DNA from: a virus
DNA: 64,000 nucleotides
Direction: 5' to 3' (one strand)
IMG/VR virus record: IMGVR_UViG_3300024262_000017
Coordinates: 1 to 64,000 of that record
The translations under genes and the position numbers were made by a program. Within the stretch, counting starts at the first letter, position 1. Each line of letters opens with the position of its first letter. The notes under the pieces were generated by a model that saw only the letters and a program-made list of their open reading frames with translations, did no database searches and had not been told where the DNA came from. Positions 1,391 through 63,068 of the stretch are shown in pieces.

Positions 1391-1831
1391 ATGCTACGTG
1401 AAGCATTCAAAAGAGGTTTAGAGGCTGCGTGGGCTGATGCTGGTTTGGAGAAGGAGGCTGGTTTACTAAGCAAAGTGCTTACACACCCAGCAACTGTTGG
1501 TGGTGTGCTCGGTTCTGGCGGTTCTGTTATTTCTGACTTGGTGAGTGGTAACACTCCTAGTTGGAAGAAGGCACTGGGTGCAGGTGCTGCAGGTGCTACA
1601 GTGGGAGCCGGAGTGCGTCATGGGGCTCCACTGTTACATCGCTTGGCTAAGAAATTCCCGAGTGTTGGAAAAAGTATGTTGACTTCGTCTGGGCAATTGG
1701 CGCCAGGCATTGCTGACATTGGGTGGTTGGCGCCTTCGTTGTTGGCTGCTCCGGCAATGATGGCAGCTGCTGGTGGAGAGGGTAACAATGCATCCGGGAA
1801 GTCACACTTTCGCTTCAGAGGTAAACGGTAG
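1391..1831 (+). CDS. leader-family Gly-rich protein (MLREAFKRGLEAAWADAGLEKEAG...)
   Basis: Start moved to ATG 1391 (SD GAGGTG); shared leader followed by glycine-zipper-like segments. Confidence 0.75.
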   Translation: MLREAFKRGLEAAWADAGLEKEAGLLSKVLTHPATVGGVLGSGGSVISDLVSGNTPSWKKALGAGAAGATVGAGVRHGAPLLHRLAKKFPSVGKSMLTSSGQLAPGIADIGWLAPSLLAAPAMMAAAGGEGNNASGKSHFRFRGKR

Positions 1832-1839
1832 GAGATGAT

Positions 1840-2478
1840 GTGCCGACAATTATCACAAGAGGTCTTGGGTATGACGAACCGACGATTATTTATCGTCGTA
1901 TCGGAGATCATATTGTTGCTCACATCATTGTCACAGATACGGTTGTTGGTACGGTTGTCCTTGATGACATGCCTGCAGCAAGTGTCGTATCAATTCCATA
2001 CCCTATTCAAGCGTCCATTGTGTTGGCTGACGAAATCGGTGCTGTCCTGGTTGTGTCTCAACAGATTTACGGTACTGTCGTAGAGGAGGGTCCTTGCATG
2101 GCCAATGAAGATTATCAAGTTAGGATGTACAAAGGCGATGATAGAACATTGGAAGTAACATTGTCGTGGCCTAGTGGTGACCCTGTTGATTTGACGGACT
2201 CAGAAATTCGATTCACTGTCAAAGAGAAGACAAGCATTTCGCAAGCGAATGCTTCTATCAAAAAAGCTAATTCAAAAGCAGGTGGTAGTGACCTTCAGAT
2301 TAAGGTTATCAGTGCTGTTGGTGGACGTTGTGATATCTATTTGGTCCAAGGAGATACTGAAACCATGAACCCAGGTACTTATTACTGGGATATCGAATTG
2401 GTCTTGTCTACAGGGAAAAAGGTTACAGCTATTCGTTCACGCATTACACTGAAAGATGACGTAACTACAACAACCTGA
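1840..2478 (+). CDS. virion protein with a BppU-N-like (baseplate upper/adaptor) domain
   Basis: C-terminal half YKGDDRTL..GDPVDLT..IRFTVK..GTYYWDIEL resembles BppU N-terminal domains. Confidence 0.55.
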   Translation: MPTIITRGLGYDEPTIIYRRIGDHIVAHIIVTDTVVGTVVLDDMPAASVVSIPYPIQASIVLADEIGAVLVVSQQIYGTVVEEGPCMANEDYQVRMYKGDDRTLEVTLSWPSGDPVDLTDSEIRFTVKEKTSISQANASIKKANSKAGGSDLQIKVISAVGGRCDIYLVQGDTETMNPGTYYWDIELVLSTGKKVTAIRSRITLKDDVTTTT

Positions 2479-2497
2479 TGCGGAGTAGTGGTGTGAT

Positions 2498-2926
2498 ATG
2501 TGTGATGAGAAAAAAGCCCGGGTGTTGTTGGTGGAAGACGATGTAACCATCCGTGCTATGTATGCTGCAGTATTACGCAAAGCAGGTTTTATCGTTGAAG
2601 AAGAAGACTCAGCAATAGAGGCGTTAGAGTTACTTGCTTCTGGGGAAAAATACGACACAGTCATTACAGACGTTATGATGGCACGTATGGATGGTTGGGA
2701 ATTCCTAAAAGCTATTCGGGCTGGGTTGAAGTTGGACAGTGTAGCTCTTCCAGTCATTGTGATGAGTGCACATTTTTCTAGTGATACTTTGCGAGTAGAG
2801 GCTTTTCAAAAGGGGGCAAGTGCAACATATACCAAAGCAGAACCGTTATCCAAACTCCTAAATGAGGTTCGGATTCACACGGGACGCCAAAGGAGCAGGT
2901 TCGATGACACCACCATCCCCGACTGA
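2498..2926 (+). CDS. stand-alone CheY-like response-regulator receiver protein
   Basis: VLLVEDD acidic pocket, phosphoacceptor D in TDVMMARMDG, switch S in MSA, conserved K in YTK. Confidence 0.9.
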   Translation: MCDEKKARVLLVEDDVTIRAMYAAVLRKAGFIVEEEDSAIEALELLASGEKYDTVITDVMMARMDGWEFLKAIRAGLKLDSVALPVIVMSAHFSSDTLRVEAFQKGASATYTKAEPLSKLLNEVRIHTGRQRSRFDDTTIPD

Positions 2927-3329: not shown

Positions 3330-3330
3330 G

Positions 3331-9601: not shown

Positions 9602-10207
9602 TCAAAACTGTATTGGTGGACGCAAACCTGCCAACACCTTTGTTTGGTATCTAGGTGATACACTGCGAACCTTGTTGATAAGATAGTCAGGGGGTAACGT
9701 TTCTATTTTTCTCGCTGTATCCCGGACATCTTCTGTGAGATCCTTGACAGCGTTTGCTTTGAGCCTCATTGCCAGAGCGGCTAAGACACCAGCACCAGCA
9801 CTCCCTACGAGTCGTCCAAGTGGTCCAGCCTTAGGGGTGATTCCACCCAACGCAGCACTGCCCATTGCACCGCCGAGTAGCCCTGCGATACCGCCATAAG
9901 CAGCACCTTCACGCTCACGTCCTTCGGGCGCCAAGGCAAAACCAATTCCTGCTGGCGCAATAACACTCCCGAGGCCACTCAAGATACTTGCGGTTTTTTG
10001 GTACGATTCATCCATGCCGGCTTCCTTCAAAGCGTGTAGTCTACCCAAGTCAGACGCCAATGCCAAACAGGCAGTCTTCTTGTTTGGGAGCTCTTTGAAT
10101 GGCGTCTTTGTTTCCTTGGCCCACTGCTTAGCCTTTCCTTTTGGAAGCTCACCTTTGTTTTCCATGGCGAAGAATTTTCCCCATTGTTTTTTACTCTTGA
10201 ACGGCAT
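9602..10207 (-). CDS. Gly-rich protein with an MPFKS-type basic N-terminus and a degenerate internal leader
   Basis: MPFKSKKQW..., LGRLHALKEAG, QKTAS, then glycine-zipper hydrophobic segments. Confidence 0.7.
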   Translation of the reverse strand: MPFKSKKQWGKFFAMENKGELPKGKAKQWAKETKTPFKELPNKKTACLALASDLGRLHALKEAGMDESYQKTASILSGLGSVIAPAGIGFALAPEGREREGAAYGGIAGLLGGAMGSAALGGITPKAGPLGRLVGSAGAGVLAALAMRLKANAVKDLTEDVRDTARKIETLPPDYLINKVRSVSPRYQTKVLAGLRPPIQF

Positions 10208-10629
10208 CAGTCGCTACTCCCAAATACACTTGAGAAGCGAGAGGCATCAGCGTTGGGGAACAGTGATTTCAATCCTTTGTAACCACCATAACCAGCGCCA
10301 GCAACACCTGTGGCAATGCCAGCTCCTTGGAGCCAGGGTGTGGCTTGTTCAAGTAGGGTTTTCTCTAGCAAAGGAATGTTCTTACCTGCTAACCTTTCTG
10401 GTACGGTTCCAGGGAGCCCTTCTAGAAATTTGTGTCCAAGTCCGCCTTCTGCTTTAGCTGAGTGAAGTTTGCTTGCGGTTTCTCGCATGCCACGACCTAT
10501 GTTTTTGGCACCACGTTTGGTGGCTTTCCACAGGGTAGTGGCAACTTCTTTGGCGGTGCTACCCTCTTTTACGAGGCCAGCATCTACATAGGCTGCGAGA
10601 GCACCAATTTCGTAGGCTGTTTTTAACAC
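10207..10629 (-). CDS. leader-family Gly-rich protein (MLKTAYEIGALAAYVDAGLVKEG...)
   Basis: GTG start with SD GAGGT; shared leader; C-terminal GAGIATGVAGAGYGG segment. Confidence 0.8.
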   Translation of the reverse strand: MLKTAYEIGALAAYVDAGLVKEGSTAKEVATTLWKATKRGAKNIGRGMRETASKLHSAKAEGGLGHKFLEGLPGTVPERLAGKNIPLLEKTLLEQATPWLQGAGIATGVAGAGYGGYKGLKSLFPNADASRFSSVFGSSD

Positions 10630-13637: not shown

Positions 13638-13641
13638 CCAG

Positions 13642-14313
13642 TTAGTCGAGCGGATAGGGCTTACGCAGAACGATTTCTAAGAAAAAAGTTTCAGGGTTTT
13701 CTAAGTCTTTGAGTTTTACTCCAATTTCGTTGAGCACGTTGGCTATCGGTAGTGATGCCCATCGTGCTTCGTATGTTGCTCTAAATTGTACTGGTGTTGA
13801 CCAGAGTTTGTCATCTTTTTCAAAGGGTGTTGTTTGATTCATTACTACAGGAGACATGTCATGGAAGCCAAAGTAGGCCTGGATGTAGTTAGATGACATG
13901 TGCAAAAAGTCTTGTACGACGCTTCCAATGATAGCACTCTCAGCAGGTTTTGTAGAAGTGCAGTCGATAATGATGTCCACATCACCTTTGCAGTAAAATT
14001 GTTCTAACCGTACACCCATGGAAACGGGCATTTGGTCTTGGTCGCCCAGCGCTATTTTTCCATAGACATTTTGTTGGCGGTCTACCCAGACACCGGGGCG
14101 AACATTGCGTGCTTCTAAGTTGTCGTTCCAACCGCTTTCAACAAATATCTTTGTGGTGTTGGGGTCGTTTTCCCATGTCCAAGGTAGTACAGGGTCAATA
14201 GAGTTACCATCGGTGAATCGTTCTCGCAATACTTGGACGAATACGCCGAGCGCCGTCATGGGCGTTGATACACGAAATACTCCAGGTGCTCCAGGTGTTG
14301 GTGCTGGTATCAT
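13642..14313 (-). CDS. putative tail terminator/completion protein
   Basis: Position between the neck and sheath genes; size and alpha/beta pattern fit. Confidence 0.5.
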   Translation of the reverse strand: MIPAPTPGAPGVFRVSTPMTALGVFVQVLRERFTDGNSIDPVLPWTWENDPNTTKIFVESGWNDNLEARNVRPGVWVDRQQNVYGKIALGDQDQMPVSMGVRLEQFYCKGDVDIIIDCTSTKPAESAIIGSVVQDFLHMSSNYIQAYFGFHDMSPVVMNQTTPFEKDDKLWSTPVQFRATYEARWASLPIANVLNEIGVKLKDLENPETFFLEIVLRKPYPLD

Positions 14314-14831
14314 CAGTAGGCGCTTCCGCCATCGCCATAATCGTAGTTGTTGTCATAGCTGTCGTTCGGGTAACCCTGGGACATGGCCTGTTGGTACAGC
14401 TGTTCAGCATAGGGGTCATAGTCACCATAGCCTTGAGGCAACGCGCCAAAACCGCCTTCGTCTGCTCCCATGGGAATTCCCATCGAACCTCCGATAGTGC
14501 GGGTTGCTGAAGGGGGAGAAGCTTCAGCTTGGGGAGAGGTAGTTTTTCCAAAAGCACGAGGTAGCTGACTCCCGAGTAGACCCCCTGCTCCGGCGCCTAG
14601 TAGGCCACCGATACCACCACCTACAGCGCCTGCTTGGCCTTCGTCATACCCAAAAGTATCTCCGATATATGACCCGAGTTGTTTACCCAGTAAACCACCA
14701 CCAGCTGCACCCGCAAGTCCGCCACCCACACCACCAGCGAGCTGTGCGGCCTGCATCTGTGCTGGAGACATTTCAGCTTCTTTGATGGCTTCTTGGTAGC
14801 CGAGAGAGAAAGCGTGTTTGAGCATAGACAT
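14313..14831 (-). CDS. leader-family glycine-zipper protein with a Tyr-rich acidic tail
   Basis: Start moved to ATG 14831 (SD AAGGAG): MSMLKHAFSLGYQEAIKEA; two GxxxG zippers. Confidence 0.8.
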   Translation of the reverse strand: MSMLKHAFSLGYQEAIKEAEMSPAQMQAAQLAGGVGGGLAGAAGGGLLGKQLGSYIGDTFGYDEGQAGAVGGGIGGLLGAGAGGLLGSQLPRAFGKTTSPQAEASPPSATRTIGGSMGIPMGADEGGFGALPQGYGDYDPYAEQLYQQAMSQGYPNDSYDNNYDYGDGGSAY

Positions 14832-16240: not shown

Positions 16241-17314
16241 TTAGTACCCCGCGGCATATCGAGCTTGTGGTGTCATTGCAAATGCCCCACGCGCCATCAT
16301 GGATTCCGGTGACGTGGCAGACTGTGTTCGGTTCATGAGTTGGTTTGCACCTTCTTCAGTTCCAAGCGAAGTGCCCAGGGCTGCTCCTACTGTCGGAACA
16401 GCGAGGCCGGCCTTGAGGCCCATGTCTTTGGCCGTGGAACCAAGACCACTCAGCACACTTTGTCCTGCTCCACCAGTGGGACGGTTTTTCCACAGTTGCT
16501 TAAAGGATTTTCCACCAGTGGTGTCCCAGGCTTTCTGACCCCAGAACGAAGGCCCTTTTACACCTATCCCAGAAACATTCTTGGCCCGGTCTGCAAGGCC
16601 TGCCAGGCGTCCGCCTGGTAGAGCAGCTTTGGAACCAAGCAGCTTACCTATGCCACCTTTGGCCAACCGACCGCCTGCAGCCCAACCGAGACCACCAGCA
16701 GCACCACCTAAGAAACCTTTTCCTGCACCAGACCAAGACCAACCTTCTCCTGGTTTCCCACCTGTAAGACCGCCAATCCCACCAGAAATGGTACCGTACT
16801 GAAGCATCTGAGAGGGTACGTTTCGACCCCCGAAGGTAAGGGCCTTGTAAGCTTTGGACATATTTTTACCGCTGTTGCCCATACCACCACCAACAAGATT
16901 TTTACCAAAACGACCTAGTTCTGGAAGTAAGCCTTTAGCACCTTGGAGCATTTCACCCTTAGGTGCCATACCCATGAAGCCTCGAACTCCCTTTGCTACT
17001 GCATCGGCAGCGGGCGCGGCCCGGGTTGCGGGGGTATAAAGAGCACGGCCTATTCCTGGAAGTCGAGATTGAACTCCTCGACTACCAGCACCTGCCATAG
17101 CTTTAACACCACGCCCACCTGCCCGGGCAATGGCTGAACCTGCATTTAGGGTCTGGCGTCCAAGCATTTTCCCTGCAGCTCCAAGCATTTTAGTAAGGAA
17201 GGCTTCTTTGATGAGGTCTGCATCAAAGCCCAATTCATGGGAGTGCTCTTCAAGGGCTTGGTCTAAGCCTCGCAGGTAAGCAATCTTCAGCATGGTTGAA
17301 GTTGGATCCATCAA
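16241..17314 (-). CDS. leader-family long Gly/Ala/Lys-rich protein
   Basis: MLKIAYLRGLDQALEE...IKEA, then about 310 aa of cationic Gly-rich sequence with glycine zippers. Confidence 0.8.
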   Translation of the reverse strand: MMDPTSTMLKIAYLRGLDQALEEHSHELGFDADLIKEAFLTKMLGAAGKMLGRQTLNAGSAIARAGGRGVKAMAGAGSRGVQSRLPGIGRALYTPATRAAPAADAVAKGVRGFMGMAPKGEMLQGAKGLLPELGRFGKNLVGGGMGNSGKNMSKAYKALTFGGRNVPSQMLQYGTISGGIGGLTGGKPGEGWSWSGAGKGFLGGAAGGLGWAAGGRLAKGGIGKLLGSKAALPGGRLAGLADRAKNVSGIGVKGPSFWGQKAWDTTGGKSFKQLWKNRPTGGAGQSVLSGLGSTAKDMGLKAGLAVPTVGAALGTSLGTEEGANQLMNRTQSATSPESMMARGAFAMTPQARYAAGY

Positions 17315-17881: not shown

Positions 17882-18325
<444 letters not shown>

Positions 18326-18337: not shown

Positions 18338-19240
18338 TTAGGACATGGTCATGCGGGTGATCGCTTTGGTGTTCCCGATACCGATGCCAGGCGCGCTGTA
18401 CGACCAGAACTCGATGATGTCCGCTTCCTGCTTGATGAACAGGGTGGCGTCCTGAAGCAGATAGAAATTGCCCAGGTAGTTTTCCGTCGAGAACAACCAT
18501 ACCACGTTGTCCGGGATCAGTTCGTTCTTGATGGTCGTCACGACCGGGATACCGAACAACTTCTCTTCCTCTTCGACACCACCAGTGTAGTGAGCCGATG
18601 CAATCTGGTCACCTACGCTGGTTGCGGGTTGCCGCAGGATGTCGTAGTAGGTCTGTTTCGCCATCAGCAATTTGCCGATGGGTTGCTTGCGCGCGATGTG
18701 GGCTTTCAGCATGTCGGAAATGATTCCGGCATCCAGAGTGGCTGCACCGGTCAAGTCCTGGTCAGGCTTGCCCGTCACCGAAGCGATGGCTGTTTCGATG
18801 AACTTGCCATCTTCGATGTCCGACATGTCCTTCACCGAGTTGTCGGAGAGGATTTTGCGGATGTCGTTCTGGTAGGTCATCAGTTCGAACTTCGACTTCG
18901 TGAACCGCTGACTCTCGATCTTGCCGAAGTAAATCGCGTAGCGAGGACCACTGAACCACGTACGGTCTCCGGTACCCTTGAAGGTAACGAAAGTCGCGGT
19001 GGAATCAGGCTCTTTCTCTACGATCTTCTTCGGAAGATCCGTGTTTTCATCGCGATCGATCTCGTCGTCCGCCAACACGATAGGGGTGAGAATTTCGCGC
19101 GCAAAAGAGGACTGACGAAGCTTGGAACGAATGAAGGCAGAACCTTCATCCTGAGCCTGCTTGGTTTGCCCTGATTCCAACTTGCGGACGAAGCTCGAAT
19201 TGATGAACTGGGCCGATACGTTCGTGCTTTCGGTTCTCAT
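18338..19240 (-). CDS. major capsid protein (HK97 fold, putative)
   Basis: 300 aa, downstream of the decoration genes; strongly C-ending codons; FAREIL.P, SQRFTKSKFEL, LFGIPVVTT.K..LIPDN.V.L pattern. Confidence 0.8.
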   Translation of the reverse strand: MRTESTNVSAQFINSSFVRKLESGQTKQAQDEGSAFIRSKLRQSSFAREILTPIVLADDEIDRDENTDLPKKIVEKEPDSTATFVTFKGTGDRTWFSGPRYAIYFGKIESQRFTKSKFELMTYQNDIRKILSDNSVKDMSDIEDGKFIETAIASVTGKPDQDLTGAATLDAGIISDMLKAHIARKQPIGKLLMAKQTYYDILRQPATSVGDQIASAHYTGGVEEEEKLFGIPVVTTIKNELIPDNVVWLFSTENYLGNFYLLQDATLFIKQEADIIEFWSYSAPGIGIGNTKAITRMTMS

Positions 19241-21334: not shown

Positions 21335-21691
21335 TCAACCGTTACCGAGAACGAAGTCTAAGAAACGATCGTCCGCAGCTACAGCTGCTTCCTTGTGGTT
21401 CATTGGAGCCATTGAGTCACGCAGTTCACTGGGTGACCCCAGCTCTGCAACTTTGTCACTGGAGACATCAGCAACCTTTTCTAAGATGCTCAAGAGATCG
21501 ACATCAGCATTGGCGAGCTTACGAAGTACGGAATCCGTAATGTCTTCACCTGTGGCCTCGGCATACTTTTCACCGATATCCGCTATCAAAATTTCACGAG
21601 CGGATTGAACCTCTGCTTGCTTTTCACTCTCGACGGCATCCATGTAGGTCGCGGCTGCTTCCAGCACGTCTGCGACTTTTTCCATGTTCAT
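21335..21691 (-). CDS. helical head-assembly (scaffold-like) protein
   Basis: Start moved to ATG 21691 (SD GGAAGG); acidic, with several KVA/KLA/KEA motifs; directly upstream of the capsid genes. Confidence 0.6.
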   Translation of the reverse strand: MNMEKVADVLEAAATYMDAVESEKQAEVQSAREILIADIGEKYAEATGEDITDSVLRKLANADVDLLSILEKVADVSSDKVAELGSPSELRDSMAPMNHKEAAVAADDRFLDFVLGNG

Positions 21692-21693
21692 GG

Positions 21694-21834
21694 TTACCTT
21701 CCTAATTTTTGACGAAGGATGCCCAACCCGAGAGCTGCCTGCGCTACTTGAGCGCATTTGACTACCTTGTTGGTTTTCGTCGTCTTGGCGCGTTCACGTA
21801 AAAGCGCTGCCAATTTTCGGAGTTCATCCTGCAT
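21694..21834 (-). CDS. 46-aa hypothetical protein (absent from the ORF track)
   Basis: SD GAGGTG; MQDELRKLAALLRERAK...KCAQVAQAALGLGILRQKLGR*; fills the gap exactly. Confidence 0.65.
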   Translation of the reverse strand: MQDELRKLAALLRERAKTTKTNKVVKCAQVAQAALGLGILRQKLGR

Positions 21835-22057
21835 GGCCCACCTCATTCAGGAAGTCTTTCACTTCAGCAACAGATACATCAGCGGATTTACTGCGTAAAT
21901 CCTCAGCTGCTTTGAAGAGCAACTTACCAATCTCTGTTTTGGGATTGGGGTGTTGCGAGGCTTCCTTCACGATTTGGTATTGCGCTATTTTGAGAAGACC
22001 GTTTTGTTTTACGGTTTCAACAATCTCCTCAGCTATCTTCCCAATTGATCCGGTCAT
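21824..22057 (-). CDS. small helical KxA-rich protein
   Basis: KIA, KIA, KEA, KAA, KSA in 77 aa; ATGA coupling to the upstream gene. Confidence 0.7.
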   Translation of the reverse strand: MTGSIGKIAEEIVETVKQNGLLKIAQYQIVKEASQHPNPKTEIGKLLFKAAEDLRSKSADVSVAEVKDFLNEVGHAG

Positions 22058-22371
22058 ATTGACGTAAACTCCTCTGTGCCTGGTGTTAGCCCAAATGAAC
22101 CGCCTAATTGCCGCAGTAGATGAGGACCAGCGAGACCTGCTGCCAGGCCTCCACCAAACGCCAGTGCTGGGGAGAATTGTTCCGACTCGCTTTTCTTGCG
22201 TGCGTCTGCAGCACCCATACCTCTACCGACATAATACGCACCACCCAAACCGCCTGCACCTAGCAAGCCGCCTTTGAGCCACGTAGGAATGGCCTCTTTT
22301 ACCAGGCCAACTTCTCGTGAGGCAGAAGCAAGTTTGAATAGTTCAGCATATATGGCACGGGCATCTGACAT
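22054..22371 (-). CDS. small glycine-zipper protein
   Basis: GLVKEA followed by GGLLGAGGLG and GGGLAAGLAG segments; GGSFGLTPG near the C-terminus. Confidence 0.7.
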   Translation of the reverse strand: MSDARAIYAELFKLASASREVGLVKEAIPTWLKGGLLGAGGLGGAYYVGRGMGAADARKKSESEQFSPALAFGGGLAAGLAGPHLLRQLGGSFGLTPGTEEFTSI

Positions 22372-23145
22372 TTAGATAGCTCGCAGCAACCGAATCGTGT
22401 CGTTGTAACCGCGCGAGAAGCAGTCTTCAGCCGTCTTTTCGATTTCAAGCATACCGTCATTGTAGCCCTGACGGATGTGGGCCAACTTCACTTGGCCTTC
22501 ACGCGTTTCGGCCAGCTTGTCGAAAGCGTAGCTCAGGTCGTTGGAATTCTGAGCACTGGCCTGCTTGGTCAGCTCCTCTGAAATCTGGGCCAACTTCACG
22601 CGCCCCGACGCTGTTTTGGACATTGCGTTGATTTCAGCTTCAGCGTCCACATAGCCCTGCTCGAAAGCAACCTTCTTCAGCTCTTCGACCTGCTGCTTGC
22701 CATGGAGGTAACCGAGTTCCATAGCTTGCTTGGTCAGGTCAGGGTTCTCCTGAGCAAACTTTTCAAACTCTTGCTCAGAGGGGACGCCCGTGGCGCTGGC
22801 AACCTTGGTGGTTCCCATACCCTGAGTCGCACCTTCGTACTGCGCGAGACGAGCCATGAAACCATCAGCCACGCCGGCGCCGTAGAGGTGAGCTTCTTTG
22901 ACGAGCAAGTCGTTTTCGCTGCGAGCCAAGGAAGCAGCCATTTTCACGAGCTCGCCTGTTGCCGGTTCACTGGCAGACGCAGTTTTCACGTTCTGAGGGG
23001 TCAGAGCGCTGTCCAGAGCGGCCACGAGTTTATCGCGAGCGGCGGACGTTTTCACAGGGTGTGAGTTACTGGCGGAAGCCGTCTTGGCGATGCCACCATT
23101 ATCCAGTCCCTGAAGGTCAGCAAGGATGTGTTTGATCTCCATCAA
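22372..23145 (-). CDS. putative prohead scaffold/core protein
   Basis: First gene after a promoter; high-expression codon bias; extremely dense KxA motifs and AxxxGY repeats. Confidence 0.6.
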   Translation of the reverse strand: MMEIKHILADLQGLDNGGIAKTASASNSHPVKTSAARDKLVAALDSALTPQNVKTASASEPATGELVKMAASLARSENDLLVKEAHLYGAGVADGFMARLAQYEGATQGMGTTKVASATGVPSEQEFEKFAQENPDLTKQAMELGYLHGKQQVEELKKVAFEQGYVDAEAEINAMSKTASGRVKLAQISEELTKQASAQNSNDLSYAFDKLAETREGQVKLAHIRQGYNDGMLEIEKTAEDCFSRGYNDTIRLLRAI

Positions 23146-23208: not shown

Positions 23209-24858
23209 CTAATTTGAAGGACAAATCATATTCCCGATCTGAACTGCTGCCTCTTCGAACGAAAGTTCATTCGGAAAGGTCGCAGGCAGTGCCGCAATTT
23301 TGATTGTACGCGCACTTCTTCGATGAGTGAAATCCATAGCCATCCGTATCATTGTGTTGGGTTCGTCCAACTCATCAAAGGAAGATACCTTATATGCAAA
23401 CTCACCCTCACAATTAGGGGGAGAACATTCAAATGGGCGCACGATGAACTCTGCTTCTTTACGCTGTGGTTGTAAGCCATAGACGGCAGACAACAACACT
23501 GCAGCGCCTGCAAGCTTGGGGAGTTGAGAGTCGGGACGACTACGGTAAAACAGTGGGCGTTCATGGACAGGGAGTTGGGCTATATGCCCTGTTTTGCCCA
23601 TGGCCATTCGGTACAAACTATCCCGGTGCTGTGACCTTTTTTCAGCGAGTGGTTTGAACTTATGTGCCAATTCAGGATTCACATTTTTCTCAGAGGTGTC
23701 GATGAAATCAGTGCCATCAACATCATCCATCAATTTGGGATTGTCAGTCAACATGTCAAAGACTTGTTGCTGCGCAGCAACAGCCCGGTCGAGAATGTCT
23801 TCAGAGATGCTTAAGGATGGGTCGATACGCCAGATAAAGTATTTGATGAACTCTGGTGTTGTGAGAAGTATACCCATTGAAGACAAGGTTGAAAGCACTT
23901 CAGCTGGTCGAAAACGAACCATGCTACGGATTGTTTCGTCGTCTAAAGCTGGCATCTTTGCAGCCATAGGCTTAGCCAGGTCAGATACAAAACGGCCTAA
24001 GCGCCCATTCTCATCCTTACTGGCAGAAACAGTCCCACGCAATATTTTGTGGATGAGAGACATTTTTTTCAACCCAGCCACTTTTCGTTCTGCGTTCTGA
24101 ACGTATTCACCAAGAGCGGCAGAACTTCTTATTTCTGGGATTGAGTCGGCTACCTTCTTCATCATGAAACCAAGACGGTCAGCTGGTCGTCGCACCATGG
24201 AAATATCGAAGAACCTGGGTGATGGATTCCAAACGAAAATGCGTTTTCCATTTGGAAGATAATCTCCCAAATGGTATTTTGCATGGTCACAGTAGGCTCG
24301 TCGGTTCGGTGCTTGATTTCCGCAGATGGAACAGACGTCGTACTTGACCTTGCATCCCATACTAACAGCGGGGAATTCGTCGTTTTCAATTCTTTCAATG
24401 ATGTCTTGAGCTTTGTCATTGACCAATGACAACAACAACTCAACTCGGTGCATTGGCCAGTTGTAAAAAGCTTTGAGCACATCACCGATACGCTTTTCAG
24501 GGTCCTTGTTGACATGGTGCTTGAAAATGTTGGCGTCGGTCTCGAAGGACTTGTAGTGCTGTGGCAGTACCTGGTCTTCTGTAATTTTCGTAGAGCCAGC
24601 TTGAAGAGGCCGCTCTGACCAGGAATCTCCATTTCGGTTGGGGCCATAAAACTCACCAGCAGTCATGGCTAAAACCAAAATGGTTGTGCGCCCTTTTTGT
24701 GGCTTGACGTTTTTGATGTAGTCGAGTGCTTCGCTGGCCACCTTCACATGTTCAAGGTGGTTATACTCATAAGGCTTGACCAACTGAATAGTTGGCTCAT
24801 CATACCGTGAAAGGTCATCGAGCTCGATGAGCTTTGAAAATGGGCTGTCAAACATCAT
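23209..24858 (-). CDS. prohead maturation protease (HK97/assemblin-like) with a Zn-finger insertion and C-terminal extension
   Basis: FKHH (His), AVSMGC (catalytic Ser), CSICG..YCDH, FFDISMVRRPAD; start likely at 24858 or 24855. Confidence 0.8.
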   Translation of the reverse strand: MMFDSPFSKLIELDDLSRYDEPTIQLVKPYEYNHLEHVKVASEALDYIKNVKPQKGRTTILVLAMTAGEFYGPNRNGDSWSERPLQAGSTKITEDQVLPQHYKSFETDANIFKHHVNKDPEKRIGDVLKAFYNWPMHRVELLLSLVNDKAQDIIERIENDEFPAVSMGCKVKYDVCSICGNQAPNRRAYCDHAKYHLGDYLPNGKRIFVWNPSPRFFDISMVRRPADRLGFMMKKVADSIPEIRSSAALGEYVQNAERKVAGLKKMSLIHKILRGTVSASKDENGRLGRFVSDLAKPMAAKMPALDDETIRSMVRFRPAEVLSTLSSMGILLTTPEFIKYFIWRIDPSLSISEDILDRAVAAQQQVFDMLTDNPKLMDDVDGTDFIDTSEKNVNPELAHKFKPLAEKRSQHRDSLYRMAMGKTGHIAQLPVHERPLFYRSRPDSQLPKLAGAAVLLSAVYGLQPQRKEAEFIVRPFECSPPNCEGEFAYKVSSFDELDEPNTMIRMAMDFTHRRSARTIKIAALPATFPNELSFEEAAVQIGNMICPSN

Positions 24859-25528
24859 CAGGGTAGAGTCCATGTAAGAGGTGGACACCATAACTGTGAT
24901 TCAGCATACGAATTTCCATGGCTAACTTCTTCGTTTCATCATCGACGTTTTCGGGTAGTGAATCAAGCATACCCTCAATAGTACCGATTGCGGCCAATTT
25001 CTCAAGCGTTTCTTCTACGAAGGCGTTTTCATCTGAACCAAATTTAGGGAGTAGACCCATCAGTCCCCCACCCTGTGATGCTCCTGGTGCTTGGTCTTTT
25101 CCCATAAGCTTGGACAGGCCATACATACCAGCACCGATACCACCAACGCCTAAGGCAGTTTGAAGAACCTTGTTGCGAATGTCAGCAGCTGTGGCTTCAG
25201 TCTGTTCACGTCCTTTTTCAAGCAAGCCACTTCCAACCATATACGTTGGTAAGCCAAGTCCCACACCGGCAGCTGCGCCACCGACTAAACTTTTTTGAGC
25301 CACGCCCGGGAGCCCGGTTCTACTTTTGAAGAACCTTTTTGTAGCTTCCCAGCCTGCCCCTGCTTTTTTGGTCATCTCAAAGATTTCGTTATCCACCCGA
25401 ATCTTGGCTTCCGCGATCTTTTCGATAACCTCGGTGTCGTTTTCATACAACTGTGCGAGTTTCTCAAGGCGTTTAGACGCCAGAACGCTTCGGTGAATCT
25501 CTGCCATCATTGGGTGTATCGGGTACAT
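24848..25528 (-). CDS. putative internal head protein with two glycine zippers
   Basis: KxA-rich helical ends flanking VGGAAAGVGLG and LGVGGIGAG segments. Confidence 0.65.
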   Translation of the reverse strand: MYPIHPMMAEIHRSVLASKRLEKLAQLYENDTEVIEKIAEAKIRVDNEIFEMTKKAGAGWEATKRFFKSRTGLPGVAQKSLVGGAAAGVGLGLPTYMVGSGLLEKGREQTEATAADIRNKVLQTALGVGGIGAGMYGLSKLMGKDQAPGASQGGGLMGLLPKFGSDENAFVEETLEKLAAIGTIEGMLDSLPENVDDETKKLAMEIRMLNHSYGVHLLHGLYPDDV

Positions 25529-27526: not shown

Positions 27527-28222
27527 TTAATGAAGTATTTCGCTTATAGGTATACCACTTTTTTCAGCATTGGTGGTGTCATCACGTGTTTCAAGTGCCA
27601 ACTGAAGCTTTTCGATACTGGACTTATCTGTTTGTTCCTCGTCTGGAACAGCACGCAGGCTAATCTGTGCCCAGCGAAGTGCAGCGTTGGCTAAGCTTGA
27701 GTCTGCACGATTGATTCTTGCCAGCTGTGTCATCATGTATGCAGTTGAGCGCACACCATCGAAAACAAGTCCGGCATCAATAGAGTATGACCCACGAGCT
27801 AAGCGTATCTTCAAGCATTCCTTACCAAGGTCGACAGCATACTGTTTCAGTTCACCACCGAAGGTGTCGTGAGGAATGCTCTTGGCGTAGTCAATGATAT
27901 CGAGGTCATCTTCGAATACATCAGGGTCAAAGAACAGTGCTCGATAAGCTTCAGTAACGCCAGTTGGAATGCGTAAAATCTCTTCAGCCTCAAAGGGCTC
28001 TGCGCCTACGAGCAATAAGGCTTCTATGATTTCTCGTTTGAATTCTCGTGAGAAAATTTCATGAGCGCGCACCACATCAGGGGATACACCCTTCAGGCTT
28101 TTGCCTGAAAGTATGGCATAGAGAGATTTCTCCACGACATTCAAGCCGTCAGGCTTTTCCTTGCTCTCGACCATCGCAATGATGTCGCAGCGTTTATGGT
28201 CAGGCCGCTTCGTCACCTTCAT
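27527..28222 (-). CDS. hypothetical protein
   Basis: 231-aa ORF in the operon with normal codon usage. Confidence 0.65.
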   Translation of the reverse strand: MKVTKRPDHKRCDIIAMVESKEKPDGLNVVEKSLYAILSGKSLKGVSPDVVRAHEIFSREFKREIIEALLLVGAEPFEAEEILRIPTGVTEAYRALFFDPDVFEDDLDIIDYAKSIPHDTFGGELKQYAVDLGKECLKIRLARGSYSIDAGLVFDGVRSTAYMMTQLARINRADSSLANAALRWAQISLRAVPDEEQTDKSSIEKLQLALETRDDTTNAEKSGIPISEILH

Positions 28223-34968: not shown

Positions 34969-34974
34969 GAGTAG

Positions 34975-35346: not shown

Positions 35347-35357
35347 GGTTTTTCTCC

Positions 35358-35666
35358 TTAGCCACCGACGGTGGTAACTTCAGGACCACGAATATCGAGC
35401 CCCATGGAATTTTGCAAGTCGTTTGTGATATTGCCAGACCTGTGTTGGCTATACGTACGGCCATCATCTTTGGGAGCACCGATGGGCTCATCAGGTATAT
35501 TCTCAGGGTGTTCTTCAATGTCCGGCTCTGATTGAAGCAGCGCAGCCAACGCTTCGGCGGGATTTTCTGCCTGAGACAGGTCAGGAACTCCTACATCTTC
35601 TGGATGAGCGACACCAGCGTCGAGCATGGCCAATTTTACGCCGAGCGTATAGGCTGCATTGTTCAT
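35358..35666 (-). CDS. leader-family acidic protein
   Basis: MNNAAYTLGVKLAMLDAG; coupled to the upstream stop. Confidence 0.7.
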   Translation of the reverse strand: MNNAAYTLGVKLAMLDAGVAHPEDVGVPDLSQAENPAEALAALLQSEPDIEEHPENIPDEPIGAPKDDGRTYSQHRSGNITNDLQNSMGLDIRGPEVTTVGG

Positions 35667-36214: not shown

Positions 36215-36239
36215 GCGTTTCTCCTTTGGGATAATTGAA

Positions 36240-36461
36240 CTAGATGCCCCGGGCAAGTGCATGTCGCCCGCGGCCTGTAATTGCGTTGAATCCAGCTTCT
36301 CTTGCTTTCTGTGCAGGGGATAACACTCCCCGTGCACCTTTCCATGCGGAAAAGCCCTTAGAGGGGGCTTTTCCAAATAGTTCTTTAAGCCATGCGTCCT
36401 TTTCAATACCGGCATCACGGAACGCGGCCTCTACACCAAGTTGGTAAGCATATTTAAGCAT
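36240..36461 (-). CDS. leader-family small cationic protein
   Basis: Start moved to ATG 36461 (SD GGAGG): MLKYAYQLGVEAAFRDAGIEKDAW. Confidence 0.75.
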   Translation of the reverse strand: MLKYAYQLGVEAAFRDAGIEKDAWLKELFGKAPSKGFSAWKGARGVLSPAQKAREAGFNAITGRGRHALARGI

Positions 36462-36486
36462 ATAAAACATCCTCCGTGTTTGCAAA

Positions 36487-36515
36487 ATGGTAGGTCAATT
36501 TACCCAGTAATACAA
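36487..36515 (-). promoter_or_regulatory. putative promoter
   Basis: TTGTAT-17 bp (ending CC)-TACCAT. Confidence 0.65.
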
Positions 36516-36540
36516 GCCGTTTTAGTTTATTTGAATTCAG

Positions 36541-39500: not shown

Positions 39501-40902
39501 CAGATTGAACAGTGCCACCACGCATCACATCTACACGACCTGTCATTGTTTGATTGGGGAAGGCAATTGTTTTCTCTACCATTTTTTCTACAGGGATGTA
39601 CTTGGCTTTACCCTTCCGGTCATGCAGTACAGTGTAGATTTTCCCATCATCATCTTTGGCAGCGAACATTGTCGTGCGCAAATCAACACCAGCTTTGAAA
39701 GACTCTGGGGTTCGAACAGGGTCTAGTATTCCCATGTGACTACCATGCAAACGCCGTGCTTCATCTGGGATAGCTCGGTCACTGGGGATACCACCTTCAC
39801 CCATGGGTGTAATCTTGGTGGCTGAGTCGATAATCTCCATTGGGTTAATCTGTGCAGGGTTGCCAGACAAAGCCGACGTGGTTAAGAACTTGTGGATACC
39901 CCGTGTGAAGGGAGCGCTGGGAAGGGAACTGTGAATATCCCCTGTTCGGTCAAGCTTCCCCATAACCTTCCTGCGAATATCTCGGGCATCAAGGGAAATT
40001 CGTTCCTTGATGAAATCATCAGGTCCTATGAATTGCTTGAATGACAAACTATCACGCTCGTCGAAATCCTCGTTCGTATTGTAAGCCTTGAGAAGCTTAC
40101 CTGAAGTTCTTAGTAATGCTTCAGGGGTAACTCGATCAAACCCTTTGCCCAATGTTTTTTCAGTGACACGTGGGTCCATGCGCGTAGCTTCAAAGGTACG
40201 TTGAATAGCCTTAATTTTGTCTTCGCCAGGTTCTTGATTGTAGGAACGCACAACTTTGGAATACAATTTGTCCATATGCTTGTCAGGTTTTTTTCCGGCA
40301 AAATCCTTATTTTGTTGAACGAGTTTGGGGTTCCACTCTTTTTCAATTTGACTATCTGAAACTCCAAGTTGTTGAAGCACAGGGTACAAAGGTATTTTGG
40401 ACGTCCCGTATTCGATGTTGAATTGACCCTTTTTTGGATCCATGCTCATACGGAAACCTGAACCACGGCTCAGATTGAACTGAGCTTCAAGTTCTTCATT
40501 TCTCTTTTTACGAGAATAGACCCCAGCTCTCATGCGTATCTGATTGCTGACAGTGTAGGGATTCCCATCAACAATAAACGTATGATGTGCGGTTAGGTGA
40601 GGCAACCGCATCAAGGTGAACTTATCAACCTTCTGTACGACTTTGCCGGTGGTGTTATCCGTCAAGGTCATAGCTCCCTGAATTGGTTCATGGAGCGTCT
40701 GAGCAGAGAGACGTGCCTTCTTGTAATCTTCAGGCCCATAGTCCTTGGGCTTTACATGCACCCCCGTAACATCGAGCGTGTATTTCTTTCCCACCATGGG
40801 GAAAGAATCTTGGATACCCTGGACAGCCTTTTTGCGAACATCTTCTTGTTTAGAAGCGGCTGTCGTAAAAATCGGTTTCAGGCCTGGGGTCTTATTTTCC
40901 AT
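36541..40902 (-). CDS. rpoB: DNA-directed RNA polymerase: beta subunit fused to the N-terminal catalytic half of beta'
   Basis: Beta motifs TFIVDG, DPVRTPE, LIPFL..DGNRA.MG, GDKLAGRYGNKG, QQP; then beta' motifs PVPPPVYRP, KRQDVSGR, PVLINRAPSL, GDFDGD in one ORF. Confidence 0.95.
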   Translation of the reverse strand: MENKTPGLKPIFTTAASKQEDVRKKAVQGIQDSFPMVGKKYTLDVTGVHVKPKDYGPEDYKKARLSAQTLHEPIQGAMTLTDNTTGKVVQKVDKFTLMRLPHLTAHHTFIVDGNPYTVSNQIRMRAGVYSRKKRNEELEAQFNLSRGSGFRMSMDPKKGQFNIEYGTSKIPLYPVLQQLGVSDSQIEKEWNPKLVQQNKDFAGKKPDKHMDKLYSKVVRSYNQEPGEDKIKAIQRTFEATRMDPRVTEKTLGKGFDRVTPEALLRTSGKLLKAYNTNEDFDERDSLSFKQFIGPDDFIKERISLDARDIRRKVMGKLDRTGDIHSSLPSAPFTRGIHKFLTTSALSGNPAQINPMEIIDSATKITPMGEGGIPSDRAIPDEARRLHGSHMGILDPVRTPESFKAGVDLRTTMFAAKDDDGKIYTVLHDRKGKAKYIPVEKMVEKTIAFPNQTMTGRVDVMRGGTVQSVQSNEVDYKIPNVHAMYGVSTNLIPFLDSIDGNRATMGSKMMTQALPLKGGEAPFIQVASYRPGMTMEQEVGNMISPTSPVAGKVTKIKNGFVYIRPNSNSKTAAPADVRIPFFQNFPLKSKTYLNDKLTVKPGDTVSAGQVIANSPFAQDGRISTGRNLRVAYTSMHGMNSNDAVVVSETGAQKLTSKHMYEEAMDADADTIVGRSTHSTYYGNKYPKTMYDSMDKGGLIKPGMRVLPGDLLIASVQKTKLSPEARMLGQLHKSLIKPYRDTSTTWDHDTPGVVSDVFRTGNKIRITIKTEEPLKIGDKLAGRYGNKGVVSSIVPDDQMLRDENDNPIDMAISPTSVVTRINPAQILETALGRVVEKTGKPIAIDNFAPRDNVQYVKDELKKHGLKDTETITDPMTGKKIKGVLVGPQYTMKLMKTTSTNFSARGVEDHDANQQPSSGGPKGAKGIGRLEFNALLAHDARNILKETSVLKSQKNDDYWRAYQLGLPTPALKSSFAYDKFGVQLVSAGIKMDKRDNLIQLGPLTDKDVGKMSSGAIRKPLFVNAKNLNPEVGGFFDPALTGGNSGTKWSHVQLSEPMVNPVFERSVKTLLDMKKADFEKTMREEGGLGIQKRLSKIDLDQREKDVLTKLKGLRSDQRNNAVKELKYLRTLKEQGLRPEDAYVVSKIPVPPPVYRPIVPSNSGNRLQVSDPNYLLRDTMIASDLLTKTKGLPNIVQGDARKHLYDSMGALYGLQEPLSPQLKNRNVQGYIARIAGAGRGPKTGFFHSKLIKKRQDVSGRGTIAPDTSLAMDEMGLPEDAGWSMYSPFVMKGLVQKGFGATEAKKMIDDRHPAAKNVLDRELQTRPVLINRAPSLYRYNVLAAYPKLVPGKTIRVHESLAPIMTGDFDGDAVSITAPVTPAAVAEAKGMTLPHMLLSDQRKSSLTTSAPQQEAVMGIYQATSAKPTGKAQTFNTKADAMSAYHSGRITLGTPVTIKKR

Positions 40903-60682: not shown

Positions 60683-60721
60683 AACCCACCTATTATAAGG
60701 AGTGTTTGGATGTCACCACAA
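60669..60721. promoter_or_regulatory. overlapping divergent promoters (terminase / AAA ATPase)
   Basis: Plus strand TTGATT-16-(CC)TATTAT; minus strand TTGTGG-18-TATAAT; the two -10 boxes overlap within a 27-nt gap. Confidence 0.45.
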
Positions 60722-61948
60722 GAACAATCGCAAGGAGACACTTTAGACTTTGCCAAGAATCTTGGTATCCTCACTGCTACACTGCGAACCGCCCGATCAG
60801 TTGTTGAAATGGCTTTCAAAAGTAAGCATGTACCCTGTCTCGTTGGAGAGGCCGGCATAGGTAAGACTGCAATCTATGGACAAATCGCTGCTGACAACGA
60901 CTGGGGTATCCTGTATTACTACCTGGCCCACAGTGAACCTGAAGACATTGTTGGTGTTCCCGTGCCAGACCAAAAAGGTGGAACCTTTCAGTATTACATT
61001 GAAAAACGAATTCACGACATCATTTATTCCAAGCGTCCGACCATCGTAGTTTTCGACGAATGGAATCGTGGAGATAAGCCTGTAACCAATGCGGCATTCC
61101 CTGCAATGGAATCCCGCCGCCTGGGTAGCATTGACTTGCCTGACCACATTTTCATTGGGGCAGCTATGAACCCCAGCGAAGGTACTTACTTCGTAAACGA
61201 GGCTGAAAAGGATCCTGCTTTCCGGAGACGTATGTGTTTCGTTGGGATTCGTGCTGACAAAAATGTGTGGTTGGATTGGGCACGAGGACGTGGAGAAATT
61301 CATCCGACTGTTATTGATTTCATCAATCGACAAGACCATGCTACCTTGCTCGATACCCAATCCAGGGATGCAGGGAAAACTTATGCTTGTCCTGCCAGCT
61401 GGGAAAAGATCAGCGACACCATCAAAATAGTTGAGACCATGGTCGTTGAAGACCACGCTCGTTGGGAAGAACTTTACCCAGTAATGCGTGTGAAGATGGC
61501 TGGGCATATTGGTGATGGTCTTTCCAGTGAGTTCCTGGCATTCCATCAAAACAACCTCGTTCTGGTCAACCCAAACGATGTGCTCACGGCGTACAATGCT
61601 CGGTCGAGAAGCCAGATTCTTGAGTTGGTTAATCAAAATAACCACCCTGCTCTCACTCGGGCAGCCGACGCAGTCAGTACGGCTATTGCGTCTAGCACCT
61701 TTGAACCGGAAGACATTGTTGAAAACATCAGCGACTTTGCAAACGACCTTCCCCATGATATTTCTGGTGCGTTCTTCCGGAAGATTTCACAAGCAATGAA
61801 AGAAGCTGCTGATGAAGACCGTCGTGTTCGTATGACACGAGCCCTGGGAAAGTGTCCTGCGTTCAAGGAATCCTTCTTGACTATTACATCGTCATTCGAA
61901 CGAACTGAGGGTGACCGTGCAAAGGAACAGGAAACCAAAGGAAACTAG
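60710..61948 (+). CDS. MoxR-like AAA+ ATPase
   Basis: GEAGIGKT, EPEDIVGVP, VFDEWNR, AAMNP, DPAFRRR, CPASWE. Confidence 0.88.
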   Translation: MSPQEQSQGDTLDFAKNLGILTATLRTARSVVEMAFKSKHVPCLVGEAGIGKTAIYGQIAADNDWGILYYYLAHSEPEDIVGVPVPDQKGGTFQYYIEKRIHDIIYSKRPTIVVFDEWNRGDKPVTNAAFPAMESRRLGSIDLPDHIFIGAAMNPSEGTYFVNEAEKDPAFRRRMCFVGIRADKNVWLDWARGRGEIHPTVIDFINRQDHATLLDTQSRDAGKTYACPASWEKISDTIKIVETMVVEDHARWEELYPVMRVKMAGHIGDGLSSEFLAFHQNNLVLVNPNDVLTAYNARSRSQILELVNQNNHPALTRAADAVSTAIASSTFEPEDIVENISDFANDLPHDISGAFFRKISQAMKEAADEDRRVRMTRALGKCPAFKESFLTITSSFERTEGDRAKEQETKGN

Positions 61949-62601
61949 GCGAGGGTTGACAATTCATTTTTGAGTTGCCGTGCCATCCTTTCAACATACA
62001 GGTGCACAGCACTCAAGTAACCAATCTGAACATCGAGGGGGGTCTCGGCAAGTTTTAATTCTTTCAGTTTTGACTTGTCGAGCCCTTCCCATCGTTTGCG
62101 AATTTGTTCTTTCAGTTCGATGTTTCCTTGGTTCAACTTATCAAGTTCATCTTGAGCGAAGGAAAGTAACTCCGGGGCAAGCACATAGCCTGTTCGATGC
62201 ATACTGACAGCAGCATAGCGTTCAGGCTCATGGTCAAATTCGCCTGCTTCCTGCAGTTGGCGATTCAACAAAAGCTTAGCCTCAAAGACGGCCCAGGAAA
62301 GTTGTGCAGGTGATGCTTCTTGGATAGCGTCAGTCATAACAGGTAGATCATTGAATGCCATTGCTGTGTTTTCAAACATCGCAGCATCCCAATAGAATCC
62401 ACCTGTTTGAATGAGTGTAGTTGCAGCCATTAGCTTGTCTCGGTTTACAGTGTCCATATTAATTTTGTTATCATCGAGTTCAAGCCAAATAGATTCAGGT
62501 TCCCAAGCAAGGAAAGACGGCCCCAGCAATTGCTTGGCTGCTTCAAAAATCGCTGTAGCAGTGGCATCCTCTTTCGTGAGGATTTCACGCGGCGAGGACA
62601 T
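61945..62601 (-). CDS. hypothetical protein
   Basis: 218-aa ORF coupled to the upstream gene (WEPESI motif). Confidence 0.7.
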   Translation of the reverse strand: MSSPREILTKEDATATAIFEAAKQLLGPSFLAWEPESIWLELDDNKINMDTVNRDKLMAATTLIQTGGFYWDAAMFENTAMAFNDLPVMTDAIQEASPAQLSWAVFEAKLLLNRQLQEAGEFDHEPERYAAVSMHRTGYVLAPELLSFAQDELDKLNQGNIELKEQIRKRWEGLDKSKLKELKLAETPLDVQIGYLSAVHLYVERMARQLKNELSTLA

Positions 62602-62603
62602 TA

Positions 62604-63068
62604 TTAGTAAGACCCCTCGCTATACTGTGGCGGGTACTGCGTTCCGTATTGTTGAGCACCAGGGTAATAGTCTGCTTCAGGGATTCCTTCAGGAGATGGG
62701 GGGAAAGAAGCCATACCTCCATCACCCGGGGTGAGACCAAACCCTCCACCGCCACCCATACCTGACAGACTCTGTGTCAAGCCTGTCATCAGTTCCTGGT
62801 TTCCTAGCAGACCTTTTGCAGTGTCACCCACACGTTGTAGCACGGAAGGATCATCTTCACGTGGATAAGCAGCAAGCCCTGCACCAAGGCCGGCAAGCCC
62901 TACACCACCGCCTAAGAGAGCTTTCTTTGCAGGAGACATATTTTTGAGGCCCGTCCATGCTCGACTTAGAAAACCTGCTTTGCCGCCCGCAGCTTCCTTA
63001 TTCATGTCGGACAACCCAGCTTCTTCAAAAGCCGCTTGAACACCAAGTTGATACGCTACCTTGAGCAT
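62604..63068 (-). CDS. leader-family glycine-zipper protein with a Tyr/Gln-rich tail
   Basis: Start moved to ATG 63068 (SD GGGAG): MLKVAYQLGVQAAFEEAGLSDMNKEAAG. Confidence 0.8.
   Translation of the reverse strand: MLKVAYQLGVQAAFEEAGLSDMNKEAAGGKAGFLSRAWTGLKNMSPAKKALLGGGVGLAGLGAGLAAYPREDDPSVLQRVGDTAKGLLGNQELMTGLTQSLSGMGGGGGFGLTPGDGGMASFPPSPEGIPEADYYPGAQQYGTQYPPQYSEGSY

Follow-up and report, generated by a model that had tools for sequence, protein, structure and literature searches.

What does a short conserved sequence accomplish when it stands at the N-terminus of many phage genes that otherwise look unrelated? The question is raised by IMG/VR virus record IMGVR_UViG_3300024262_000017, of which the first 64 kb (hereafter the window) carry nine genes that begin with the same Met1-anchored, 23-residue leader, M-L-K-x-A-Y-x-x-G-x-x-x-A-x-x-D-A-G-L-x-K-E-A. 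The record, 122,545 bp long and 69% complete by CheckV, belongs to an uncultivated lineage with hundreds of metagenomic relatives; complete relatives measure 180–194 kb, and the genome sampled here is estimated at ~180 kb. We suggest that the leader may be a targeting propeptide, comparable to the capsid-targeting sequence (CTS) of phage T4, which the prohead protease would remove. Cleavage and packaging are both deduced from the genes, and we give this explanation an even chance of being right.

A conserved leader on dispersed genes

The leader genes of the window, with one candidate member and one protein that was examined as a possible member, are as follows.

1391..1831 (+), leader gene, 146 amino acids: MLREAFKRGLEAAWADAGLEKEA, then a Gly/Ala-rich basic body (E 9e-13)
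10207..10629 (−), leader gene, 140 amino acids, GTG start: (V)LKTAYEIGALAAYVDAGLVKEG (E 1.3e-11)
14313..14825 (−), leader gene, 170 amino acids, short leader closing IKEA and glycine-zipper body with 18 GxxxG (E 5.5e-11); the ATG at 14831, two codons upstream, may be the start instead
16241..17293 (−), leader gene, 350 amino acids, 8-residue insert ahead of LIKEA, body Gly-rich and basic (+29) (E 1.1e-7)
31847..33085 (−), leader gene, 412 amino acids, acidic: MFKKAYARGTMKALIDTGALKVA (E 1.7e-10)
34975..35346 (−), leader gene, 123 amino acids, between two RNA polymerase genes (E 4.8e-11); its body falls in a cluster of 6 representatives
35358..35666 (−), leader gene, 102 amino acids, acidic body, leader without the K-x-A close (E 1.1e-12)
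36240..36461 (−), leader gene, 73 amino acids, basic body, directly downstream of RNA polymerase beta/beta'N (E 4.1e-15)
62604..63068 (−), leader gene, 154 amino acids, adjoining a 295/330-residue K-x-A-rich protein (E 1.2e-13)
22054..22371 (−), candidate divergent member, 105 amino acids: ...AIYAELFKLASASREVGLVKEA, then a glycine zipper; recognised by eye and missed by the profile
9602..10207 (−), 201-residue Gly-rich protein with an internal ...LHALKEAG..., K-E-A and K-T-A-S; no significant leader match (E = 1)

All nine N-termini proposed in an initial annotation of this DNA are present in the window. Its start positions are exact for the genes beginning at 1391 (+), 10629 (−), 35346 (−), 35666 (−), 36461 (−) and 63068 (−). 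In the remaining three the leader Met lies at 14825 rather than 14831, at 17293 rather than 17314 (a TTG) and at 33085 rather than 33091, the choice of start codon being the sole difference. The degenerate internal copy of the leader that had been proposed within 9602–10207 found no support in the profile search. That protein has a Lys-rich N-terminus (MPFKSKKQWGKFFAME...), and PF24182, 'gene 1 ring forming protein', aligns weakly with its residues 143–168, scoring 14.3 bits and so staying under the cut-off.

The family stands out clearly from chance. A strict pattern, [MVL][LFIMN][KRN].A[YF]..G, matched nine times in the six-frame translation of the window, every time at the first start codon of the open reading frame (ORF), and most of the nine starts are preceded by a Shine-Dalgarno-like sequence; the reversed window gave one match, and 50 triplet-block shuffles averaged 0.2, with no more than 2 in any one of them. 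Across the 122.5-kb record a leader profile (A1) recovered 14 ORFs at E ≤ 7e-6, 13 of which had been in its training set and one of which, 117252 (+), had not; the members beyond the window begin at 121880 (−), 121442 (−), 115275 (+), 115726 (+) and 117252 (+). A blind all-against-all comparison of 786 N-termini beginning with ATG recovers a cluster of 10 together with a variant cluster of four (115275, 116328, 117554 and 118081, all +). We count at least 14 leader genes in the record, and probably 17 overall. Eleven of these leaders share on average 45% of their amino acids and 37% of their third codon positions, an excess that suggests selection on the leader's protein sequence, and the leaders within the record are old.

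To place the leader more widely, a second profile (A2), built from 25 leaders, was scored against 1,835,955,588 representative proteins at E ≤ 0.001. It matched 114, among them at least four of this record's own proteins and several from relatives used in building it. Residue 1 is where the leader starts in 90 of the 114 matches, and in 112 it starts no later than residue 11; the consensus reads M-[LIN]-K-x-A-Y-[EQ]-[LAM]-G-V-x-x-A-[LMF]-x-[DE]-A-G-[LIV]-x-K-[ETQ]-[AS]. Past position 23, at the closing K-x-[AS], conservation drops off sharply.

At the DNA level a strict degenerate pattern had no match in 185,579 cellular species genomes (596 Gb), six matches in two IMG/VR contigs and 23 in 14 metagenome stretches; nine of those 14 also encode homologues of other genes of this phage, and the remaining five are contigs of ≤ 2 kb. 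The leader thus appears to be confined to this phage lineage. In metagenomic relatives the leader genes form tandem arrays of two to at least six, directly after an RNA polymerase gene. A further query of GenBank phages returned chance-level matches to bodies only (E ≥ 1), and a word-based protein search with residues 1–40 of one member returned that member alone.

A head module with a gp21-like protease

The window also encodes a prohead protease, together with other proteins of the head module.

23209..24891 (−), prohead maturation protease, 560 amino acids; residues 62–249 with the T4 gp21/herpesvirus assemblin fold, 257–560 helical
22372..23145 (−), scaffold-like protein, 257 amino acids; K[ETQV][AS] 10 times against 1.0 expected, K-T-A-S three times
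21335..21757 (−), head-core protein, 140 amino acids; five K-x-A sites against 0.5 expected
18338..19240 (−), major capsid protein, 300 amino acids, HK97 fold in a predicted model
28200..30842 (−), conserved head-module protein, 880 amino acids; K[ETQV][AS] six times against 1.6 expected

The AlphaFold model of the protease (predicted local distance difference test score 79) aligns with T4 gp21 (5jbl) at Z 10.5 and a root-mean-square deviation of 2.7 over 128 residues, and with herpesvirus assemblins at Z 7–9 over residues 62–249; Foldseek by itself gave weak matches. His126 and Ser177 are invariant among 46 homologues, and their order and invariance suggest a catalytic role. An invariant K-V-A (residues 246–248) sits at the domain boundary, in a linker modelled with low confidence. 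The proteases of giant phages remove their own C-terminus (PMC5694885). More than 800 homologues of the protease were found, some with inteins; the 870–980-residue ones (P0123, P0124, P0137 and others), which come from other metagenomes, include domains of inteins and homing endonucleases (PF05203, PF14528, PF14890). Within the protease domain, residues 180–201 hold four invariant cysteines (C180, C187, C190, C201) that look like a zinc-ribbon-like insert; we know of no such insert in T4 gp21. Likenesses of the leader to the C-terminal tail of the protease (A-x-x-[LI]-G-x-x-x-C) and to the N-terminus of the 880-residue protein (F-E-x-G), both noticed by eye, were dropped, as neither had profile support at E ≤ 10.

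The predicted fold of the capsid protein matches the HK97 prohead and encapsulins in Foldseek (E 4e-9; 345 matches at E ≤ 0.001), and a profile search points to 6wkk_A, 'Gp27 major capsid protein' (E 0.0019). In the 80 protease-centred loci over which all neighbourhood counts were taken, the capsid protein is the most conserved neighbour (79 of 80, median identity 61%). The 257- and 140-residue scaffold-like proteins are encoded between the protease and capsid genes, and the 880-residue protein is, by its size and position, a candidate portal; in the latter, a stretch of ~180 residues (roughly 570–750), flanked on either side by a conserved part, is made up of repeats of the G-M-P-P-[EG] type. 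The resulting order, 880-residue protein ... protease, scaffold-like protein, ... capsid protein, parallels T4 genes 20-67-68-21-22-23. Sequence searches of PHROGs, Pfam and the PDB gave no name for the 880-, 257- or 300-residue proteins, nor for one of 978 residues.

Several other proteins of this region deserve mention. Just upstream of the capsid gene lie three paralogues (19293–19736, 19752–20189 and 20200–21315, all −) that share the N-terminus MSNLNS.FD.L.GWP... and a similar C-terminus, a trio also present in relative G006, and these may be decoration proteins. For the 371-residue member, DUF2793 and CBM_5_12 match below threshold, and the atlas points only weakly to cement or minor-capsid proteins. 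Its gene, 20200–21315, was initially considered for the capsid protein by its position and was dropped, given those sub-threshold matches and weak leads and its occurrence in just 10 of the 80 loci. Also in the head module is a 203-residue protein (30860–31471, −) that has the zincin motif HELGH and, with 19.5 bits (E 8e-4), falls short of the Zn_peptidase_2 cut-off of 27; encoded two genes downstream of the 412-residue leader protein and with homologues in 18 of the 80 loci, it is a second candidate peptidase.

The K-x-A motif in head proteins

What may connect the leader to this module is the way it ends. Residues 24–29 of the capsid protein read G-x-[VTI]-K-[EQT]-A in all 45 listed rows of a 65-sequence alignment (K-x-A being residues 27–29), and the leader's closing A-G-L-V-K-E-A resembles this stretch of the capsid N-arm. 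Head-core genes of this phage contain 32 K[ETQV][AS] against 8.5 expected, and its baseplate and tail genes 11 against 11.8. The bias is directional, with 67 K.A in the head core against 21.2 expected and 11 of the reversed A.K against 21.0; control proteins (tail, RNA polymerase, terminase) give 19 against 22.7. Orthologues across the clade repeat the pattern in the scaffold-like protein (336 against 45 expected) and the 140-residue protein (109 against 21.5), and clade-wide enrichment is 7.5-, 5.1- and 4.5-fold in scaffold-like proteins and 1.1–1.2-fold in neck- or tail-like ones, although these counts are not independent because the sequences are related. T4 behaves comparably with a motif of its own: the T4-type cleavage motif, in its customary form, occurs eight times in the gp22 scaffold against 1.3 expected and is absent from four tail proteins, whereas K[ETQV][AS] is flat in gp22 (two against 1.8). 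Co-folding of the protease (A3) with the leader (A2) scored 0.00 against a mark of 0.32, a result that counts neither for nor against binding.

Glycine-zipper bodies behind the leader

The proteins behind the leader had been described as otherwise non-homologous, and in BLASTP terms they are, no pair among 13 bodies of the record falling below E 0.2. They are nonetheless alike in kind, since 13 of 18 record bodies consist of 30–51% Gly+Ala with repeated GxxxG. The same holds more widely: the bodies of the 114 database matches average 19.1% Gly and 15.5% Ala, with GxxxGxxxG in 66, and BLASTP at E ≤ 1e-3 leaves the 111 bodies of at least 30 residues in 96 unlinked groups. To speak of many swappable cargoes therefore overstates the case, as most bodies are Gly/Ala-rich glycine zippers.

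Two exceptions are a NUDIX protein and the conserved 412-residue acidic protein. The former, encoded outside the window (118081–119250, +), has 389 residues and a variant leader; its NUDIX domain matches PF00293 above the cut-off (E 3.9e-11), and its gene is one of seven leader genes clustered in tandem at 115.2–119.3 kb. For the latter the ESM atlas gave no usable match. As far as the Pfam and PHROGs libraries go, the leader proteins do not form a described family, as had been supposed: Pfam assigned no family to the nine window members, PHROGs returned nothing beyond low-complexity matches, and the product of 116328–117149 scores 19.6 bits with Gly-zipper_YMGG, below the cut-off of 28.9. No body reaches classical transmembrane hydropathy (maximum 19-residue Kyte-Doolittle mean ≤ 1.55).

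Possible functions of the leader

We propose that the propeptide, ~23 residues long, would comprise an amphipathic helix with a small-residue face (A5, G9, A13, A17), a D/E-A-G turn and a closing [LIV]-x-K-x-[A/S/G]. Docking of the helix would bring its carrier into the prohead's scaffolding core; the leader would then be cut off at K-x-A by the gp21-like protease, much as the CTS is removed from T4 internal proteins and Alt. Most of the cargo would consist of small proteins of the glycine-zipper kind, which probably act on the host envelope as internal or ejection proteins; the 412-residue acidic protein and the NUDIX hydrolase would be delivered as well. That K-x-A is the cleavage site, the helix the targeting element and the virion interior the destination of the carriers, we infer from the patterns described above.

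The 412-residue protein offers a view of how such a system may have arisen. No other carrier is conserved throughout the clade; this one has orthologues in 31 of the 80 loci, of which 28 open, judged by eye, with a related [LM]-F-K-x-A-[YFA]-x-R-G...L...G......K-E-A. Leader-like N-termini also occur in the closest relative, G006 (seven to nine), and, in divergent form, in the complete but distant 190-kb relative G008 (about five). The leader is thus ancestral on at least the 412-residue protein, and in the sub-clade to which the window belongs it has spread to numerous small genes.

Several observations weigh against a cleaved targeting peptide, beginning with the supposed site. All gp21-type proteases characterised so far cleave after Glu, those of T4, phiKZ, 201phi2-1 and SPN3US included (PMC5694885). 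In the 114 leaders the residue between K and A (position 22) is E in 55, T in 11, Q in 11, L in 8, K in 6 and S in 6. The head core of this phage is enriched in K-[TQV]-[AS] (32 against 5.4 expected) and not in K-E-[AS] (three against 3.0) or [LIVMT]-x-E-[ASG] (11 against 15.5). As the core form is neither K-E-[AS] nor the hydrophobic-x-E type, either the protease departs from cleavage after Glu or the leader and core sites differ. The leader of the 35666 member lacks K-x-A altogether, and the relatedness of the sequences behind the clade-wide enrichment lessens what can be drawn from it.

The distribution of the leader is a further difficulty for a cleaved targeting peptide. It had been expected to be tied to phages with this protease; it is indeed limited to the lineage, but the leader profile matches in just 6 of the 80 protease neighbourhoods, and the strong claim that the leader always travels with this protease was rejected. 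Complete relatives of 180–194 kb with the same protease family show one or two marginal profile matches, or about five divergent ones with a loose pattern. Because matches are so few in the complete relatives and the 80 loci, the large leader family looks like a sub-clade expansion rather than a fixed partner of the protease. Nor was a cultured relative found: tblastn of the decoration-like 371-residue protein and two leader proteins against 50,697 GenBank phage records gave no match, and none of the cultured phages there has the leader.

A paralogous family with low-complexity, fast-diverging bodies would explain the 'unrelated cargo' more cheaply than targeting does. The leader could then be a retained N-terminal helix-turn domain of one expanded glycine-zipper family, used for oligomerisation or as an anchor to membrane, portal or DNA; it would not be cleaved, its carriers need not be intracapsid, and they could equally be envelope-active ejection, lysis or exclusion proteins. 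We regard this as possible though somewhat unlikely. The Gly/Ala-rich, zipper-bearing bodies of the record and of the database matches are what it would predict, the A5-G9-A13-A17 spacing is a helix-packing pattern, and both the member without K-x-A and the few proteins (e.g. P0003, P0015, P0060) that hold the module twice in tandem also fit a retained domain. Neighbouring leaders inside one tandem array, moreover, have a nucleotide identity of 0.91–0.94, which points to plain gene duplication. Against such a domain speak the anchoring at residue 1, the abrupt end of conservation at K-x-[AS], the same closing motif in the capsid N-arm and its direction-specific enrichment in scaffold-like proteins; the NUDIX enzyme and the acidic carrier are not glycine zippers, and the hydropathy of the bodies falls short of that of classical transmembrane segments.

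Removal by the protease might also serve something other than targeting, for example by keeping membrane-active zipper proteins inert until they are in the head, with other parts of each protein directing incorporation. The K-x-A evidence fits this as well as it fits targeting, and zipper bodies could be toxic to the producing cell; but 17 conserved helical residues ahead of the site go far beyond what a protease site needs, and the NUDIX and acidic non-zipper carriers share the leader, so that we think it quite unlikely. Very unlikely, in our view, is a processing or export signal of some other system, such as the HExxH zinc-peptidase-like protein of 30860–31471 or machinery of the bacteriocin or ribosomally synthesised and post-translationally modified peptide type, with the Gly-rich bodies released as membrane-active peptides. 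A conserved leader, hypervariable cores and tandem precursor arrays do recall peptide-natural-product loci, and the HELGH protein is encoded close to the 412-residue carrier and recurs among the loci. Yet no Peptidase_C39 or Radical_SAM domain was found in the 69%-complete record, bodies of 70–410 residues are long for such peptides, the genes lie within late structural operons, the family is absent from the cellular genomes searched, and K-x-A in the scaffold-like proteins and capsid N-arm points to head maturation.

We also consider, as an unlikely elaboration of the targeting propeptide, that the leader is a docking helix which self-associates with like helices of core proteins by its small-residue face. 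It would help build a glycine-zipper ejectosome that, on infection, leaves the head and inserts into the host envelope, carrying enzymes such as the NUDIX hydrolase and perhaps the RNA polymerase whose genes surround the leader array; the protease of this clade would also have switched from cleavage after Glu to K-x-A specificity. Such a specificity would resemble that of herpesvirus assemblins, whose cleavage sites are Ala/Ser.

Comparison with known systems

The nearest parallel to a targeting propeptide is the CTS of T4 (on IPI–III and Alt, processed by gp21), likewise a short N-terminal peptide, which in T4 is common to otherwise diverse head-internal proteins (PMC3012670, PMC9958956, PMC5694885). 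The T-even internal proteins, diverse and with only the CTS in common, can be likened to the variable leader arrays (PMC3012670). In both phages a gp21-fold protease is encoded beside scaffold and capsid genes, a protease motif is enriched in scaffold proteins (K-x-A here, the T4-type motif in gp22) and an enzyme is among the carriers (a NUDIX protein here, the ADP-ribosyltransferase Alt in T4). The CTS is ~10–20 residues long (PMC5694885), whereas the leader has 23 with a conserved helix. Against six-frame ORFs of T4 positions 100,001–150,000, which include alt and genes 20–24 and exclude the ip genes, the leader profiles reached a best E of 1.7. The leader would follow the same principle as the T4 tag, not a different one as had been supposed, with a longer and apparently unrelated sequence. 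Other differences from T4 are the closing K-x-A in place of cleavage after Glu, the 14–17 carriers in 122 kb, mostly glycine-zipper proteins, and the small, 300-residue HK97-type capsid protein. Encapsulins, which are among the best matches of the predicted capsid fold, offer another analogy: a short terminal cargo-loading peptide docks varied cargo inside an HK97-fold shell, although it is usually C-terminal and is not removed.

In the giant phages phiKZ, 201phi2-1 and SPN3US a gp21-like protease cleaves many internal head proteins, gp53 and its paralogue gp54 have an identical 15-residue N-terminus holding cleavage motifs, and RNA polymerase genes lie within the head gene region, as here (PMC5694885, PMC10052503). 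Their propeptides are, however, mostly > 100 residues long, with the motif A/S/G-x-E, and do not form a single portable sequence. The phage described here has, in its 69%-complete record, one RNA polymerase set, and its genome is estimated at ~180 kb. In phage P1 the N-terminal ≤ 30 residues of DarB suffice to send a reporter into the capsid; the Dar proteins have no consensus N-terminus in common, while here a consensus is the defining feature (PMC9024508).

We found no description of such a leader in the literature outside these systems, which is weak evidence of absence because a sequence motif cannot be searched as text. While the principle is known from the T4 CTS, giant-phage propeptides and P1 DarB, what is new is the sequence itself, with its conserved helix and its length, as well as how large the family is, the apparent use of K-x-A with a gp21-fold protease and the uncultivated lineage. 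If the leader is indeed a targeting propeptide, the T-even phages would be joined by a second clear example of a single portable sequence that addresses many proteins to the head, in what is by far the largest family of this sort. Met1-leader-K-x-A would then serve as a rule by which the proteins that these phages inject or keep inside the head could be predicted from sequence alone, the 23 residues would offer a natural tag for filling HK97-type shells with proteins, and cleavage specificities other than 'after Glu' would seem possible among gp21-fold proteases. Should the leader instead be a retained domain, the result would be an expanded glycine-zipper family with a conserved N-terminal helix, of narrower interest.

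Gene context

Other genes identified in and near the window are as follows.

59090–60682, large terminase
36541..40902 (−), RNA polymerase beta fused to the N-terminal part of beta', 1453 amino acids; a leader-gene array comes after it
33175..34968 (−), C-terminal part of RNA polymerase beta', 597 amino acids
7208–8686, gp5-like spike
past the window end, gp6-like baseplate wedge and endolysin
various positions, ATPase, helicase, primase and family-A DNA polymerase

No tRNA genes were found. Three leader genes and a 250-residue protein with hydrophobic segments separate RNA polymerase beta/beta'N from beta'C (33175–40902, −). Just beyond the window, 64137–65888 (+) encodes a 583-residue HNH endonuclease-like protein (phrog_1314, E 8e-53). 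Finally, the 147-residue protein encoded at 17882–18325 (−) contains a long (EP)n/KPEP repeat.

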